From Escherichia phage nithesis, in the sequence record PV252060.1: a stretch of 64,000 nt of DNA; one strand, 5' to 3'. This document shows, one piece after another, positions 691 through 64,000 of this stretch; within the stretch, counting starts at the first letter, position 1, and each line of letters begins with the position of its first letter. The notes under the pieces are model-generated. The model saw only the letters and a program-made list of their open reading frames with translations. It made no database searches and had not been told where the DNA came from. A program made the position numbers and the translations under genes.

Positions 691-2272
691 GTTAATTAAA
701 CAGGAACTAGATGAATGGCTAGACCAGGTGGATTATTCCCATCTTAATTCATCTAACTATGTTCCCAGTCAGTTTGCCCTTACCTTTGCCAACTTTATTA
801 AGTTGGTTAATGGCAAAGAAGGTGAGTCCAACAAAACACCCCCAGTTCACTTGAAGATGCTGGATAAGATGATTAGTCCGAACCAGTATGTAGTTAACCT
901 GTGCTTCCGTGGTGCAGGTAAGACTGCTGTGTTCATGGAATACTTTACTTTATTCCTGGCAGTGTTCGGGCATTTACCAAGTCTGGGTAAGGTAGAAGGA
1001 ATGATTTACGTATCTGACTCAATGGATAACGGTGCTAAGTCTGCACGTAAAAACATTGAGTTTCGTTACAAGAATAGTGAGTTCCTTCAGCAATGGATAC
1101 CTGAAGCTACCTTTACGGATAACCTACTGGAGTTCCGTAATGTAGAAGGGCATCGACTTGGTGTTAAGCTGTTTGGTGCTAAGACGGGTCTTCGTGGTAC
1201 GAAGATATATGGTAAGCGTCCAACACTCTGTGTACTGGATGACTTGATTAGTGATGGTGATGCTAACTCCAAGACTAGCATGGAAGCTATTAAGGATACC
1301 GTCTATAAAGGTGTGAACCATGCTCTTGACCCAACCCGTCGTAAAGTAATCTTCAATGGTACTCCCTTTAATAAGGAAGACATTATCATTGAAGCAGTCG
1401 AATCTGGTGCATGGGATGTCAACGTATGGCCTGTATGTGAGAAGTTCCCCTGTAGTAGGGAAGAATTTCAGGGTGCATGGGATGACCGTTTCTCTTACGA
1501 CTACATTAAAGCCCAATATGACATGGCAGTTAAGACCGGTAAGCTGGCAGGCTTCTATCAGGAACTTATGCTCCGTATTAGCTCAGAAGATGAGAGACTG
1601 GTTCAGGATAGTGAAATTAGATGGTATAGCAGACAGCAGCTATTAAGAATGAAGTCCTGCTACAACTATTACATTACAACCGACTTTGCTACTTCGGAGA
1701 AACAGACCAGTGACTACAGTGTCATATCAGTTTGGGCTTATAGTTCTAATGGAGATTGGTTCTGGGTTGATGGTGTGGCTAATCGTCAGCTTATGGATAA
1801 AAACTTTGATGACCTGTTTCGTCTGGTTCAAGAATACCAACCACAAAACGTTGGGGTCGAAATCACAGGGCAGCAAGGTGGATTCATTTCACTCCTTCAG
1901 AAAGAAATGATTAACCGTAATGTCTTCTTTAACTTTGCGTCCTCTGAGGGTGGTAAGCCAGGCATACGTCCTGTAACCTCTAAGCTGTCTCGCTTTAACC
2001 TGGTAGTTCCATGGTTCAAAGCTGGTAAGATGTACTTCCCAGAAGAGTTGAGAGATTCAACTATTATGGGACTGTTCATGGGCCAGATTAAACTAGCTAC
2101 CATTAATGGAATCAAAGGTAAGGATGACTGTATTGATACTATCTCCATGCTGGGTTATCTCAATCCTTGGAAACCACAAGCAGGTATGACTATGGTGGAT
2201 AACAAGGGTGACCCGATGTGGGATGACGAAGAAGAAGATAGTGTTAACCCACTACGTTCATACATTGTGTGA
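662..2272 (+). CDS. terL: terminase large subunit
   Basis: 536 aa; P-loop-like RGAGKTAV near N-terminus, acidic C-terminal nuclease-like region; position at head of structural module as in N4-like phages. Confidence 0.75.
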   Translation: MQMRTLQMSELIKQELDEWLDQVDYSHLNSSNYVPSQFALTFANFIKLVNGKEGESNKTPPVHLKMLDKMISPNQYVVNLCFRGAGKTAVFMEYFTLFLAVFGHLPSLGKVEGMIYVSDSMDNGAKSARKNIEFRYKNSEFLQQWIPEATFTDNLLEFRNVEGHRLGVKLFGAKTGLRGTKIYGKRPTLCVLDDLISDGDANSKTSMEAIKDTVYKGVNHALDPTRRKVIFNGTPFNKEDIIIEAVESGAWDVNVWPVCEKFPCSREEFQGAWDDRFSYDYIKAQYDMAVKTGKLAGFYQELMLRISSEDERLVQDSEIRWYSRQQLLRMKSCYNYYITTDFATSEKQTSDYSVISVWAYSSNGDWFWVDGVANRQLMDKNFDDLFRLVQEYQPQNVGVEITGQQGGFISLLQKEMINRNVFFNFASSEGGKPGIRPVTSKLSRFNLVVPWFKAGKMYFPEELRDSTIMGLFMGQIKLATINGIKGKDDCIDTISMLGYLNPWKPQAGMTMVDNKGDPMWDDEEEDSVNPLRSYIV

Positions 2273-2278
2273 GGAACC

Positions 2279-2989
2279 ATGCAAAAATTATCGGAAGTAT
2301 ATCGTGGCTTGGCATTAAGTACCTTGAAGGGTACTGGTGCAGTCACCGATGACAGATTAGGCATTGAACCAGATAGTAAGCCAGAGATATTGGCTGCTAT
2401 TAATGAAGGGTTAGTTCGACTGCATAGTCGTTTCCCCCTTAGAACTAATAGCTGCATTGTGGAGATGAAGGAAGGTCGTACTGATTATCCCCTCCAATCT
2501 CGGTATGCTTACTCCAGATTTACTAAGCCTACTCTTGAGATTCAATATCCATACATCATGGATGGGTTCATGAAACCTTTCCAGGATGATGTTATTAAAA
2601 TCTTAAATGTGTTTGATAACTCAGGGAATCGCCGTAGACTTAACGACGATTCAGATCCCCATGCAATTTTCACCCCACGGCCTGATACTATTCAGTGTAT
2701 GCGACCTCGACACTTCGAGGCACTTAACGTAACTTATCAAGCTAAGCACCCAATACTTACGGGTGATGAAGAACAGGAAGTTGACTTAGCAGATACACTA
2801 ATGACAGCACTTCATAACTGGGTGGGTTATCGTTACCACACTGGTTTGAATACTCCGGAAGCTAATGCTAAGGCAGCAGAGTATCTGCAAACGTATGAAA
2901 GCATCTGTGGTGAGGTTGTTGATTACGACCTGGCTAATGGAAGTATTTCAATTACCGAAACTAAATTTGAACAACGAGGATGGCGATGA
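2279..2989 (+). CDS. virion structural protein, function unknown
   Basis: 236-aa ORF between terminase and tail fibre genes; 10-nt overlap with the next gene suggests translational coupling. Confidence 0.4.
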   Translation: MQKLSEVYRGLALSTLKGTGAVTDDRLGIEPDSKPEILAAINEGLVRLHSRFPLRTNSCIVEMKEGRTDYPLQSRYAYSRFTKPTLEIQYPYIMDGFMKPFQDDVIKILNVFDNSGNRRRLNDDSDPHAIFTPRPDTIQCMRPRHFEALNVTYQAKHPILTGDEEQEVDLADTLMTALHNWVGYRYHTGLNTPEANAKAAEYLQTYESICGEVVDYDLANGSISITETKFEQRGWR

Positions 2990-5900
2990 ACGCACATACC
3001 CCCTTTGATGCAAAACAGGATTGGACCAATCCATACTGCCAGAACAGTTCCAATGACCCAATGGTAGATGCACTACTTGGTAATGCTTACCATGTGGTTC
3101 GAACTGTGTACTGCAATCTTGGTAACCTCAAACTTCTGTATGATTTCCTGAACCAGTATGGAATGGTACTTGGTGTACAGTCTGAGGCAGAACTTAAGGC
3201 TCTAACCACTGAAGCTAAGTATGCCCGTATCTACGGTTTCTCCCGTGCAGGTGACCGTCAGATAACTGACTACCTTTATGTGGAAGGTGACCGTACCGGT
3301 ATCATTCCAGATGACCCAAAGGCAACTGGTTCATGGATTACCGTTGCTACTTCTGGTTCCAATGATAGTGGTACTTCCTCCGGTGAAGGTGCTTATATTC
3401 CATGGGTATATGCAAACGGTTCTGCTACTGGTGGTGAAACTACAATCAACGTACCAGATGGTACGGTGGGTGTACCTTTTATTATTGTTAATGGCGACAT
3501 GCAGTATGTAGGTCGTGGTTTTGAGTTTAATATTGACAGCCTGTCTGTAACTCTGGCTCAACCTCTGGAAGAGGGTGATGAAGTAGTATTCCTGCTGACT
3601 GGGGTTCCTGCTGTGCCAGATAACCCTAACGTTAGTGATTGGGTTCAGATCAACTGGTTATATAACAATGGTGCTGCTGTAGGTGGCGAGCAGGTTATTG
3701 CTATTCCTTATACCTTCCAGTCTGTTCCTGCTGTGTATAAGAATGGGCTTCGTTTATATAAAGGATTAACCACTGAGTCTTATACTGCTGACCCCGATAA
3801 CCAACGTATACTTCTTACTGAGTCACTGGCAACCGATGACCGGTTGATTGTACAGCTTGGTGGCGAGTCATGGGTATTTGAAGCATCAGACAGTACACTT
3901 CAAGAAGTGGCTCGTGCAGCTAACGTAAAAGACTCTGAAGTAATCCTTAGTACGGACACCACTCAGGTACTTAATGGTAAGAAGGTAATTTATGATGTAG
4001 TTTCCCAACGTATATACTGGTTACCTACCCTACCTACCAATGTTTATATCATCTCTGTCTCAGACGGACAGCTAACATATTCTCCTGGAAATATTACTGT
4101 TACTCTGCTGGATTCCTACCAGCAGCAGAATGCCAGAGAACTATGGCGACGTAACCTTGCTGAGGCCGGTTTAACTCTTGTCGATGGTAGCTTTGAAGAA
4201 GGTGTCACGGCGAACAGTGCAACTGATGCTGTTTGGCATATCGCTGGTGGGCAGTGTTACACGTGGGGTGGCGAATTTCCTAAAACTGTAGTACCTGGCT
4301 CAACTCCAGCAACAACTGGTGGGATTAGTGATGATGCATGGTTAAGTGTTGGTGATGTAAGTTTAAGAAGTGACCTGGCTGATGATGACGGAGTTGATTT
4401 AGTTAACGGAGCAGTCAAGGATAAAGATTTTGAGCTTTACAAAAGGCAATCAATTGCAAAAAATAGATTTAATTTCGCTTTTGGGAATAAATACTCAAGA
4501 AGCTTTAATAATAATTTGCGCTTACAGTTGCAAACTTATGTAGAGAATGTATTTAACTTTGCACCAAAAGCGGTGTCACTTCCGAGTGGGCGGGTGGTAT
4601 GTATCTACACAGTGAAGGATGGTGCTAATATTGACCCAGGACAGGACGGCACACCTATGCACATTGATTACCTAATATCTGATGATAACGGTGTGAACTG
4701 GACCACTGGAACTGTTGTTAACAAAGGACCAGGATATGCCACTTCTGAAACGGTACTATTCCTAAATAATCTTGATGGATATTTGTATTGTTTCTTTACA
4801 TCAATGAAGGGGATTACTGGGTGGGGACATGCACAACAAGGAACTAACCCTGACACAACATCAACTATTGAATATGTCATATCAAAAGATGGTGGCAATA
4901 CATGGAGCACCCCTGTTGATATTACGCCATTGGTTAAACCATCTGGTGCTTACTTCTCATCAATTGCACCTACACAAGTCGGGTACATAAATGGCAAGCC
5001 TGCAATTCCTTATTATTATTTAACTCAACTATCTACAGGAATAGTTGAGGGGTATATCACAGTTGATGATAGCGGTAACTACACCTACGGTGAAGATGTC
5101 AGGAAAGACACCGATGTCGATACGCTAGGAACTTCTGGCGGCGAGATTGGATTTGGCAATTTCTATGATGGAACACCTTTTGCAATTGAGCGTGCTGCCG
5201 ACACAACAATCAAACCGTATAAAATCGCAATACAAAAGCTATTAATGCAAGATTCTAGTGGAAAGTGGGTTGTAAAAGGACAGTTCCCTACCACTAACTG
5301 TATGGCGTCGTTCTTACGCGTTGGCCCTGATTATGGTTTTGATAAGGATTATCTCTTTGTTATCGCACCTGTTGGTCAATCAGGTAATTATGAAGGACGT
5401 GCAAACATTAGAGTATTCGACTGCTCTGACGATTTTAGCAATCCTATTGATCGCGGCATGATAACAGACACAAATGCTTTGGAGGCAGGTTACAGTTCAA
5501 CCGTGCTTCTATCTTCTGGTTCATTTATGAGTATGTGGAACGGTAGACAGTGGACGATTAGCAATTCAATTTACACTATTAACAGGCTTGCGGGCAACGC
5601 AATTATCCCTGTCCCGTTTTGTGGCACTATTAAAATTGTTGACATTAGAAAGACTTTTGCACCCGATTTAAGAACCAACGAGCGAGTGATTGGTCTTGCT
5701 GACGGCAAAGAATATACATGGAACGGTTCATCATTTGTGCTTGGTATTTCGTCACCAACGAAAACGCTAACAACTGAAACAACTACATTAGATGCCAACT
5801 CTTGCGACGTATTTTATCTCGACGCTGGAAGTAATGGGTCAGTGATAACGTCAATCACTGGTGGATATATCGGACAAAGGATATCAATACTTCCGTTATC

Positions 5901-61117: not shown

Positions 61118-61951
61118 TTATTCTGCAACAGTAACAGGGATGGTTACATCGACAGTACCGTTGGTAACTACTACAGAAGTAGCATCACCAGCAGCTACTG
61201 GTTTAACTGTCAGGACATTGCCAGAAATGGTAGCTGTAGCACGTCCAGATTCTGGAGCAGTCTTGATAGACAAAGTACCGGAAGAGGAACCAACAGGCAT
61301 AGCAACAATTGTTACAGTCTTGCCAGCAACAGTATCGGCAGCAACAGACAGAGCCAGTGAATCAGGAGTAGCTACCAGAGAGCTTGCTTCGTAGTAGCCT
61401 ACAGCCAGCAGTGACTCATCTTCTACAGTGGTTACATTAGCATCTGTAACAATCACTTTATAAGTACCAGCAGAAGCAGCTGTTACGTCATTAAGGGTCA
61501 ATGTTGCAGTAGCAGCAGATGGGTTAGTACTGGAACTAATATCAGCGAATGCTGCACCAGCAGTATTTGCTTTGAATTGCCATTTATAAGTAAATGGTGC
61601 TTTACCACCTGCTACATCAACATGCCAGTTAATATCTTCACCTTCAATAGTGGAGACTACACGAGGCAGTTTGGTAGCAATGGTCAGTCGTGGAGTAGCT
61701 TTCATATCAATAGAGATAGACTGCATATCCACGATGTTGTTAGGCCAGAAGCCTTCTTCAGCAGGGTTTTTAGCAGAGCGTTTATATAGCAGATCACGAA
61801 CACTATGAAAGATAACTAAGCTATCTGGGTAAGTGGCATCTGGGTGTACAAAAGTACCTACTTCTACGGAACCACCTGGGATAGAACCACTGGCATCCAG
61901 TACAGTTGCAACATTAGTGGTTTTGTTAAAACCTACTTTCAAAGTTGGCAT
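61118..61951 (-). CDS. Ig-like (Big-type) domain protein
   Basis: About 278 aa from internal ATG with GAGGAA Shine-Dalgarno; Thr/Val/Ala-rich beta-strand-like repeats (TYKVIVTDANVTTVED, TVTIVAMPVGSSSGTLSI) typical of bacterial Ig-like domains. Confidence 0.4.
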   Translation of the reverse strand: MPTLKVGFNKTTNVATVLDASGSIPGGSVEVGTFVHPDATYPDSLVIFHSVRDLLYKRSAKNPAEEGFWPNNIVDMQSISIDMKATPRLTIATKLPRVVSTIEGEDINWHVDVAGGKAPFTYKWQFKANTAGAAFADISSSTNPSAATATLTLNDVTAASAGTYKVIVTDANVTTVEDESLLAVGYYEASSLVATPDSLALSVAADTVAGKTVTIVAMPVGSSSGTLSIKTAPESGRATATISGNVLTVKPVAAGDATSVVVTNGTVDVTIPVTVAE

Positions 61952-62025
61952 ATCAATTTCCTCATAAGTAAATAGCAGGATTAGTATACATGACATGTAA
62001 AAAAATAAACCCTCCGTTAAGAGGG

Positions 62026-62241
62026 TTAGTTGTTTACACAGTAGATAGCAAAAGCTATCCATCCTGCCATTACAAAGCAGCCAAGTGAGTATGCTCCATA
62101 GTAGCAGTAAGCAAACTTAGACTTGTGGGCATGAACTATTGTAGACAGAACCAGTACAGATAAAACTATCAGTATTAGCTGAAAGATTACTTCAAAAGGG
62201 ATTAGCATAGTTTTTACCTCCAAGCAAAAAATAGGCCTCAC
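62026..62241 (-). CDS. small membrane protein
   Basis: 71 aa, two hydrophobic segments; start likely internal. Confidence 0.3.
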   Translation of the reverse strand: MRPIFCLEVKTMLIPFEVIFQLILIVLSVLVLSTIVHAHKSKFAYCYYGAYSLGCFVMAGWIAFAIYCVNN

Positions 62242-62265
62242 TCCCGAAGGAATGAGGCTAGTTTA

Positions 62266-63483
62266 TTAACTTAATGCATAGTCAGTTTCAAGAATGTCCT
62301 GCCAGAGGCTGTCATCCAGCTTACCAGCAGAGAACTCTTGTCCTAGTACCTGTGACAGAATGAAGCCTAGCAGGTCACTCTTAGCAATGTCAGACAGAAT
62401 CTGATTGTACTGACGACGCAAGTCGTTGCCATAGTTAGGATGACAACGGAAGCAGTCATGTACAGTCATTACAGGGAAAGGTTTCTTAGGCATAGTATTG
62501 AGCATAGCTAAGATTACATCTGTATCTACCAATGCAATGGTTTCTGAGTCCAGATAATCAAGGATACGCGTAGACAGGAAGCCTGATTTCTCATAACTAG
62601 ACCACAGTGTATTAACCATTCCATAGTTATCATCAGAACCCACCATATAATCGCCAGTTCCTTCACAGAGGGATTTAATATAGTTCACCTGGTTCATGTC
62701 GAAGTTACAACGACGCAGCATCTCACGTACCACCATCCCATCAATAGAGTGAGTGATGTTAGCAGAGAGCATACGAGTCTTCTCTTCAGTACCCTGAACC
62801 ATACGAGTGATGTCGAATGGTTTACCTAAGAAGTTAACGGTCTGTACTTCTGGAACCATGACCTTAATGACAGCATGGAAGTTGTCAGGCAGTATCCATA
62901 CATAACGGTTGGCATCCGGGTTACCACATTGTAATAAGAACTTGTTAAGTGCCCAAGGACCACTAGCAACAGTTTCCATTACATTCTCAAAAGTCTTGAG
63001 ACGAATACCTTCACCGAATACTTCTTTAGGCTTAGCTTCTGAGCCGTAGAATGCAGTCATAACTGCCTGCTTAGTGTCACTACGTTTAATACGAGATGCT
63101 TCACCAAGGATGTCCAGCATCTTGTGATAGATAACTGTATAAGCATCACGACGTAATGGCTTACCATTCTCTCCCATGTAGTTAACTACGTTACACAGTT
63201 CAGCAGCAGAGCGGTCACCAGTTAGGCAGGCCAGTAACTGCAAGCCGGATGATGTAGCATCCAGAGCTACGGCATAACCGATAGGCTTACCTGCTTTCAT
63301 ATCTTTCCATGCGTTTACACCAGCAAAGAACAGAGCAGAATCTTCAGCTTCATCTACCAGATTAAGCAGGTTAGCTTCGTTTTCATCGAACCAGGCAATA
63401 CGCTCATCCCATGTCTTCTTATCTAAGCCATAGTTATTAGCGATATCTACTTTCAGGTATTCACGAGCGGTTAACAGTTGCAT
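62266..63483 (-). CDS. T7-like RNA polymerase, large (catalytic) subunit of split RNAP II (N4 gp16-like)
   Basis: 405 aa; VALDATSSGLQ matches T7 RNAP motif A (DGSCSGIQ), TVHDCF matches motif C (HDSFG); N-terminus aligns with the T7 RNAP region before motif A. Confidence 0.7.
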   Translation of the reverse strand: MQLLTAREYLKVDIANNYGLDKKTWDERIAWFDENEANLLNLVDEAEDSALFFAGVNAWKDMKAGKPIGYAVALDATSSGLQLLACLTGDRSAAELCNVVNYMGENGKPLRRDAYTVIYHKMLDILGEASRIKRSDTKQAVMTAFYGSEAKPKEVFGEGIRLKTFENVMETVASGPWALNKFLLQCGNPDANRYVWILPDNFHAVIKVMVPEVQTVNFLGKPFDITRMVQGTEEKTRMLSANITHSIDGMVVREMLRRCNFDMNQVNYIKSLCEGTGDYMVGSDDNYGMVNTLWSSYEKSGFLSTRILDYLDSETIALVDTDVILAMLNTMPKKPFPVMTVHDCFRCHPNYGNDLRRQYNQILSDIAKSDLLGFILSQVLGQEFSAGKLDDSLWQDILETDYALS

Positions 63484-63690
63484 TTTATGTTCCTTTTGCT
63501 TCTTGGCTCCCCACTATGGAGAGCCTGCTTATTGGATGATTAGGCAGTTACTACGTCAGCAGTTAGTTTATAAATAATGGTTTTACTTTCAGGGTTTTGA
63601 AGCTTGTAAAGCTTCTCAAAGTATAAGCACTTCACATATGTACCTGAGTAAACACATTCTTCATTAACCCATAGCTCATAAGAGCCAATG

Positions 63691-64000
63691 TTAGTCTTCA
63701 TTTACTAACTCCTTATCAGCGAATTCCAGTACAGCTTTGTTGTAGCTGGTTCCCTGAAAATTTATGTGGTAGCCACAGGCATATGTACGCCCACGTTTGT
63801 CGTATTTGTGAGCCAGGGAGAAGTTATTGCCTTCTTTGGTCACTAACTCCATTACTTCTTTAGCTGTACGGCTGTATTTCTCAAAGGCTTTAACACGTTT
63901 CTCATAGTCCTGACGGGTTTCCCCCTCTTTGGGTTTATCCATATTAGGACGTGAGTCTTTTACATAGTTAGCAACGTCCCAGTTAATGCAGAGACGTTGA
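63691..64000 (-). CDS. T7-like RNA polymerase N-terminal (small) subunit of split RNAP II (N4 gp15-like), 5-prime truncated by window
   Basis: KYDKRGRTYACGYHINFQG aligns with T7 RNAP NMDWRGRVYAVSMFNPQG; reading frame stays open to the window edge. Confidence 0.55.
   Translation of the reverse strand, partial: QRLCINWDVANYVKDSRPNMDKPKEGETRQDYEKRVKAFEKYSRTAKEVMELVTKEGNNFSLAHKYDKRGRTYACGYHINFQGTSYNKAVLEFADKELVNED

Follow-up and report, generated by a model that had tools for sequence, protein, structure and literature searches.

A conserved 53-codon gene in a polymorphic slot between the two RNA polymerase II subunit genes of a Gamaleyavirus phage

The last 1.7 kb of the window, by which we mean the whole 64,000-nucleotide (nt) stretch of the Escherichia phage nithesis record PV252060.1 that was analysed, hold three open reading frames (ORFs) on the minus strand: one of 405 amino acids (aa), one of 53 aa, and an upstream one that is cut by the end of the window. 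To judge from their homologies, the outer two encode the heterodimeric, T7-like RNA polymerase (RNAP) II of an N4-like phage. The 53-aa ORF between them is a real gene under purifying selection, and the slot in which it sits is polymorphic among close relatives. We consider it fairly probable that the region is the RNAP II early-gene cluster of a Gamaleyavirus, and that the cargo of the slot is a dispensable accessory early gene and not a polymerase subunit. By megablast the region falls in Gamaleyavirus (the genus of G7C-like relatives of N4 within Schitoviridae), with 47 records covering at least 80% of the query and Escherichia phage vB_EcoP_PE007 as the best match at 95% identity.

The ORF lies at 63540..63701 on the minus strand, consists of 53 codons and a stop (54 codons in all), begins with MKTNIGSYELWVN and contains the stretch MKTNIGSYELWVNEECVYSGTYVK. 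The 207-nt gap in which it is found (63484-63690) separates the large-subunit gene (62266..63483, minus strand) from the 3' part of the small-subunit gene (63691..64000, minus strand), and the ORF overlaps the latter by 11 nt (63691-63701). Both the coordinates and the overlap agree exactly with an earlier reading of the letters alone, hereafter the sequence-only reading. It had also called the ORF unlisted, which holds for its own gene list but not for the public records, where a hypothetical protein is annotated in St11Ph5, U1G, PhAPEC5, PhAPEC7, ECBP1 and Bp4. With tblastn the ORF was found at full length in 23 phage records, representing 15 distinct phages, at 65-98% identity, and all ten copies that were read directly, two metagenomic ones included, are intact 53-codon ORFs. 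The ratio of nonsynonymous to synonymous substitution rates (dN/dS, Nei-Gojobori method, NG86) is 0.03-0.31 in 44 of the 45 pairs; the remaining pair, at 0.51, consists of near-identical copies with only three differences. Variable sites among the ten copies fall on codon positions 1, 2 and 3 in the numbers 14, 8 and 31. The other five frames are closed by three to nine stops each in every one of these diverged copies, and since the ORF is the only open frame of six it goes beyond what chance would leave.

The sequence-only reading had offered either a small regulatory protein or a spurious ORF, and in the latter case the gap would be a non-coding leader of the large-subunit gene, e.g. one that carries an RNA structure. 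It is true that the ORF is short, without known domain and missing from many relatives, and that the gap does contain a hairpin. The hairpin is however outside the ORF, in a 56-nt leader that phages with an empty slot also have, and a Rfam scan of 61900-64000 gave nothing above chance, its sole match being a sub-threshold hammerhead (E 0.8). Together with the coding pattern of the substitutions, the strong Shine-Dalgarno sequence, the single open frame and a conservation at the protein level that holds at up to 35-43% divergence, this leaves us with hardly any belief in a spurious ORF. That half of the earlier alternative is thus rejected, while a regulatory role, the other half, is at most a possibility.

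The signals for its translation are written into the end of the small-subunit gene. An AAGGAG Shine-Dalgarno sequence (63709..63714, minus strand) stands 7 nt before the ATG and is embedded in the last small-subunit codons, and the ATG itself overlaps the region of the small-subunit stop. The protein end encoded here, DKELVNED (63699-63714, minus strand), is identical in phages that carry a small ORF and in EC1-UPM and phiG17 (loci L005 and L013), which have an empty slot, but the codons differ. Every genome with a small ORF in its slot uses AAG-GAG...AAT-G, which gives the Shine-Dalgarno sequence and the ATG, whereas EC1-UPM and phiG17 have the synonymous AAA-GAA...AAC and neither signal. Either the last 25 nt or so of the polymerase gene would belong to the cassette, or selection may have acted on the synonymous sites so that the small ORF is translated. 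The 53-aa gene would be translated from this AAGGAG and ATG of its own, and since both lie inside the small-subunit gene, the protein is probably made along with the polymerase subunits. In N4 both gp15 and gp16 are made early, from transcripts of the virion polymerase, and it is for this reason that we infer an early timing in the infection for the 53-aa protein as well. A programmed frameshift that fuses the small subunit to the 53-aa ORF was also considered and discarded, as no slippery heptamer is found at the overlap and a good Shine-Dalgarno sequence is present.

The slot was surveyed with an empty-site query in about 40 distinct Gamaleyavirus genomes; 14 loci were read, and those that were not fetched were assigned by insert length, annotation and tblastn for the 53-aa and a 79-aa ORF. 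Its left border is the stop codon of the small-subunit gene and its right border a leader of about 55 nt before the large-subunit gene (63484-63545, minus strand), which is conserved beside every type of slot. At least nine alternative contents were found within this one genus, four types of endonuclease among them. The slot is empty in EC1-UPM and phiG17 and holds the 53-aa ORF only in 13 phages besides this window, the 53-aa and 79-aa ORFs together in 24-32N and IME11, and the 79-aa ORF only in seven phages (by tblastn). A 36-aa ORF is found in CU10EC, and a 38-aa and an 80-aa ORF in E20 and F22. The endonucleases are one of 204 aa in HK2 and pSb-1, one of 193 aa with a NUMOD1 domain (annotated as HNH) in G7C and four others, and two types of 168 aa with HNH_3 and AP2 domains, type 1 in the three phages of the PW8 group and type 2 in the three of the UE-S5a group. 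All four endonuclease genes start where the small-subunit stop codon meets the slot, and the flanking polymerase DNA of congeners that differ in their slot is still 85-93% identical. As to whether the 53-aa ORF is absent or disrupted in close relatives, the answer is mixed: no copy is broken, but some 25 of the 40 congeners hold other content or nothing. Outside the genus the gap between the subunit genes is 47 nt and empty in N4; in other Schitoviridae genera it can be as short as about 35 nt or exceed 750 nt, with up to four hypothetical genes.

The 53-aa family differs from its neighbours in several ways. The guanine plus cytosine content of the ORF is 34.6% against 43% in the flanks, and the U1G protein has only 65% aa identity to ours where the flanking proteins have 93-97%. 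A word-indexed search of 5.8 billion proteins gave five close clusters only. When 1.84 billion representatives were searched exhaustively with a HMMER profile, one further genuine homologue came up, of 47 aa and 57% identity; the remaining profile matches lay in long or low-complexity proteins and were discarded as chance similarities of a repeat-like kind. The 47-aa homologue occupies this slot too, in an N4-like contig from a metagenome (L021, ERR11042398_28170) with polymerase subunits 82-84% identical to ours, against the 57% of the small protein. Because the slot contents are so varied, and the 53-aa family is low in guanine plus cytosine, faster in its divergence and narrow in its distribution, the pattern reads as the signature of an accessory-gene hotspot.

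Other cargo of the slot has travelled more. The 79-80-aa ORF (phrog_5444; positions 1980-2219 of locus L002 and 1090-1329 of locus L008) recurs as homologues of 28-56% identity in phages that are unrelated, namely jumbo phages of Erwinia, Salmonella and Kosakonia and phages of Acinetobacter, Rhizobium, Vibrio and Microcoleus, and by its matches it is a widely travelling small phage gene; the 53-aa family is, unlike phrog_5444, confined to the slot between the subunit genes. The metagenomic contig carries two small ORFs in its slot (L021, 2817-3144), the 47-aa homologue and one of 57 aa that begins with MNSKYELWYKVKEV. The latter has the 'YELW' start of its 47-aa neighbour and resembles it in predicted pattern, but we rejected paralogy at a hhalign probability of 4%.

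That the polymerase is split is textbook N4 biology, and the assignment of the two flanking genes, as made in the sequence-only reading, was confirmed by the comparisons. Residues 1-405 of the large protein, its whole length, match residues 1-404 of the RNAP2 (gp16) chain of N4 (PDB 6dt7_B; E 7.4e-195), and the protein also matches the Pfam family RNA_pol (PF00940, E 2e-14). The upstream ORF, open from its TAA stop (63691-63693) through base 64000, has 102 aa in the window, which match residues 172-268 of the 269-aa RNAP1 (gp15) chain of N4 (6dt7_A; E 1.1e-42 with phmmer) and phrog_2166, 'N4-like RNA polymerase' (E 4.7e-49). It is the C-terminal third of the small subunit, of which the N-terminal part of about 170 aa lies beyond base 64000; the full protein is annotated with 272 aa in relatives (St11Ph5).

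T7 gene 1 was fetched and aligned to both subunits, for the small one by phmmer from residues 219-265 of St11Ph5 gp15. These match T7 RNAP 401-448 and place DKRGR, the DX2GR motif (63787..63801, minus strand), opposite T7 D421-R425, and the large subunit begins at about T7 residue 451. Motifs A and C are both placed in the 405-aa protein by this alignment, motif A with D75 (T7 D537) at 63259-63261 and motif C with H342-D343 (T7 H811-D812) at 62455-62460, and so is motif B, with R134, K138 and Y146 (T7 R627, K631 and Y639) at 63046-63084, all on the minus strand. The division of the motifs, with DX2GR on the small subunit and the three catalytic ones on its large partner, agrees with that described for N4 (PMC4496689). 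A query fused from the two halves of the junction matches T7-like podophages as a single unbroken piece; here the genes are separate, with a stop codon and the 207 nt between them. The small subunit would supply the N-terminal region, the thumb and the DX2GR motif, and the large subunit the palm and the fingers with motifs A, B and C, and by analogy with N4 the two polypeptides would assemble into an active heterodimer that serves as the middle-gene polymerase.

Two irregularities were seen in the large-subunit gene. Around residues 265-310 (about 62560-62700, minus strand) the nucleotide identity to St11Ph5 falls to 47-65% while that to U1G is about 92%, and the same residues also differ from N4. 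This mosaic patch suggests a recombination tract inside an essential polymerase gene. In Shigella phage pSb-1 (NC_023589; positions 2177-3393 of locus L007) the gene is annotated as two overlapping coding sequences of 795 and 456 nt, which probably reflects a frameshift or a sequencing error in the record and not a further split of the polymerase.

The 53-aa protein itself has a mass of 6.2 kDa and an isoelectric point of 6.1, is neutral and rich in tyrosine (six Tyr), and has two invariant Cys. Its hydropathy average (GRAVY) is -0.16 and there is no obvious hydrophobic segment, and it is predicted to be cytosolic. AlphaFold2 (AF2) gave a beta-beta-alpha-beta model, and because only the best of the five models reaches a pLDDT of 77, the others lying at 37-59, we take this fold as tentative. 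No significant structural match was found for it. The gene is already known in GenBank and PHROGs as a hypothetical protein. The profile of phrog_15352 matches from end to end (E 1.1e-40, residues 1-53 against 1-53 of 53), and PHROG 15352 and St11Ph5_00022, ECBP1_0018, EpBp4_0079, LD33_gp17 and LD35_gp17 share family, length and genomic position with the ORF at 90-98% identity; there is no substantive difference between them, and none has a function assigned.

Nor is a separation of the subunit genes new. Amgarten et al. 2017 (PMC5418858) described a 'G7C-type' organisation of the RNAP, counted from 0 to 8 genes in the spacer of N4-like phages, and proposed that insertion of a homing endonuclease split an ancestral single-subunit RNAP, and similar mobile insertions in g16 and g39 have been reported for phages of the G7C set (bioRxiv 10.1101/542787). 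The spacer genes and the idea of a split by homing endonucleases are thus published, and the importance of our result is mostly at the level of annotation. What we add is that this ORF is truly coding and under purifying selection, that the terminal codons of the small-subunit gene accommodate its ribosome-binding site and start codon through synonymous codon choice, and the number and variety of the slot contents within one genus.

In comparison with the known systems, the locus shares with N4 RNAP II (gp15 or RNAP1 and gp16 or RNAP2; PDB 6DT7) the two-gene, heterodimeric, T7-like polymerase and the same distribution of motifs, but the N4 genes have nothing between them and a 53-codon gene stands between ours. 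It belongs to the G7C-type organisation in that an unrelated gene, here that for the 53-aa protein, separates the two subunit genes, although the slot of G7C itself holds the 193-aa endonuclease. With the free-standing homing endonuclease genes inserted in g16 and g39 (bioRxiv 10.1101/542787) it has in common the genus, the slot and the setting of mobile insertions in or beside polymerase genes; the 53-aa ORF is however without nuclease motif and too small for an endonuclease.

One alternative is that a homing endonuclease once occupied the slot and decayed to a fragment, perhaps its N-terminal or DNA-binding module, that is now without function. The slot does hold four different endonuclease genes in relatives, all from the same stop junction, and to the eye 'GSYxL...VYSG' bears a loose likeness to a GIY-x10-YIG spacing and to the beta-beta-alpha portion of an AP2 domain. 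No nuclease or NUMOD/AP2 domain is recognisable in the 53-aa protein by sequence or fold, and no profile or fold result supports a GIY-YIG or AP2 remnant, an idea read by eye which we dropped; we regard a remnant as very improbable. A more serious alternative is that the protein assists or regulates RNAP II as a factor specific to this lineage, translationally coupled to the subunits and acting in assembly, promoter use or the switch from early to middle genes. It would fit the position exactly between the two subunit genes, the start signals embedded in one of them and the 47-aa homologue, which has kept this place in an N4-like contig further removed. The N4 enzyme does require further factors, namely gp1, gp2 and a promoter-melting protein known only as 'X' (PMC4496689). 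But the gene is missing from N4, EC1-UPM and phiG17, and it evolves much faster than the subunits. Its place in those roughly 25 congeners is taken by unrelated ORFs, endonucleases or nothing, beside near-identical polymerase genes, and in N4 the enzyme that was purified and crystallised consists of gp15 and gp16 alone (PMC4496689; 6dt7). We find such a factor unlikely. The protein is probably not a component of the polymerase at all, because it is absent from N4 and from the congeners with an empty slot, because gp15 and gp16 of N4 suffice for an active enzyme, and because unrelated cargo can replace it.

The reading we favour is thus that of a slot whose cargo differs between relatives and which in this genome holds one 53-codon gene. 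The product would most likely be a dispensable accessory protein of the 'moron' type that binds another protein, in host takeover or in conflict between phage and host or between phages; we infer its early co-expression, its dispensability for the polymerase and its protein-binding role. Some points weigh against this. The retention in the same slot of a relative with subunits of about 83% identity, and the translational coupling, are equally to be expected of a polymerase-associated factor, searches with Pfam, NCBIfam and PADLOC gave zero matches and so no functional lead for the protein, the AF2 models are of only moderate confidence, and expression of the protein is itself a prediction from the sequence. 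There is also a slim chance that something of wider interest is at hand, either an unrecognised lineage-specific partner of RNAP II or of gp1/gp2 that tunes middle transcription, or a new small protein of anti-defence or host takeover that is carried along in the polymerase operon. The 53-aa protein would in any case be a small and cheap target for experiments in a G7C-like phage.

The leader of the large-subunit gene contains a Shine-Dalgarno-like AAGGAA (63490..63495, minus strand) and the 9-bp hairpin mentioned above (63505..63525, minus strand; RNA fold of -16.3 kcal/mol, z -2.3). The hairpin has two allelic forms, GGCTCTCC-ATAG-TGGGGAGCC here and GAGCC-AAnA-GGCTC in U1G, phiG17, PW8 and UE-S5a, and the leader of N4 has a weak hairpin, AGCC-AATA-GGCT. 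An upstream UCC is paired with the GGA of the large-subunit Shine-Dalgarno sequence in four of four folds. The hairpin could be an element of processing or of translational control.

Just past the stop codon of the large-subunit gene, a consensus scan found an intrinsic-terminator-like hairpin with a T-run (62235..62258, minus strand), which has a 10-bp stem with six G-C pairs followed by CTATTTTTTG. Downstream of the polymerase gene, at 62026-62241 on the minus strand, there is a hydrophobic ORF of 60-71 aa (phrog_12530, E 1e-39), which is gp16.1 in St11Ph5; EC1-UPM and 24-32N have no gene annotated at its position. It is flanked by two intrinsic-terminator-like hairpins, the one just described and another at 62008-62027.
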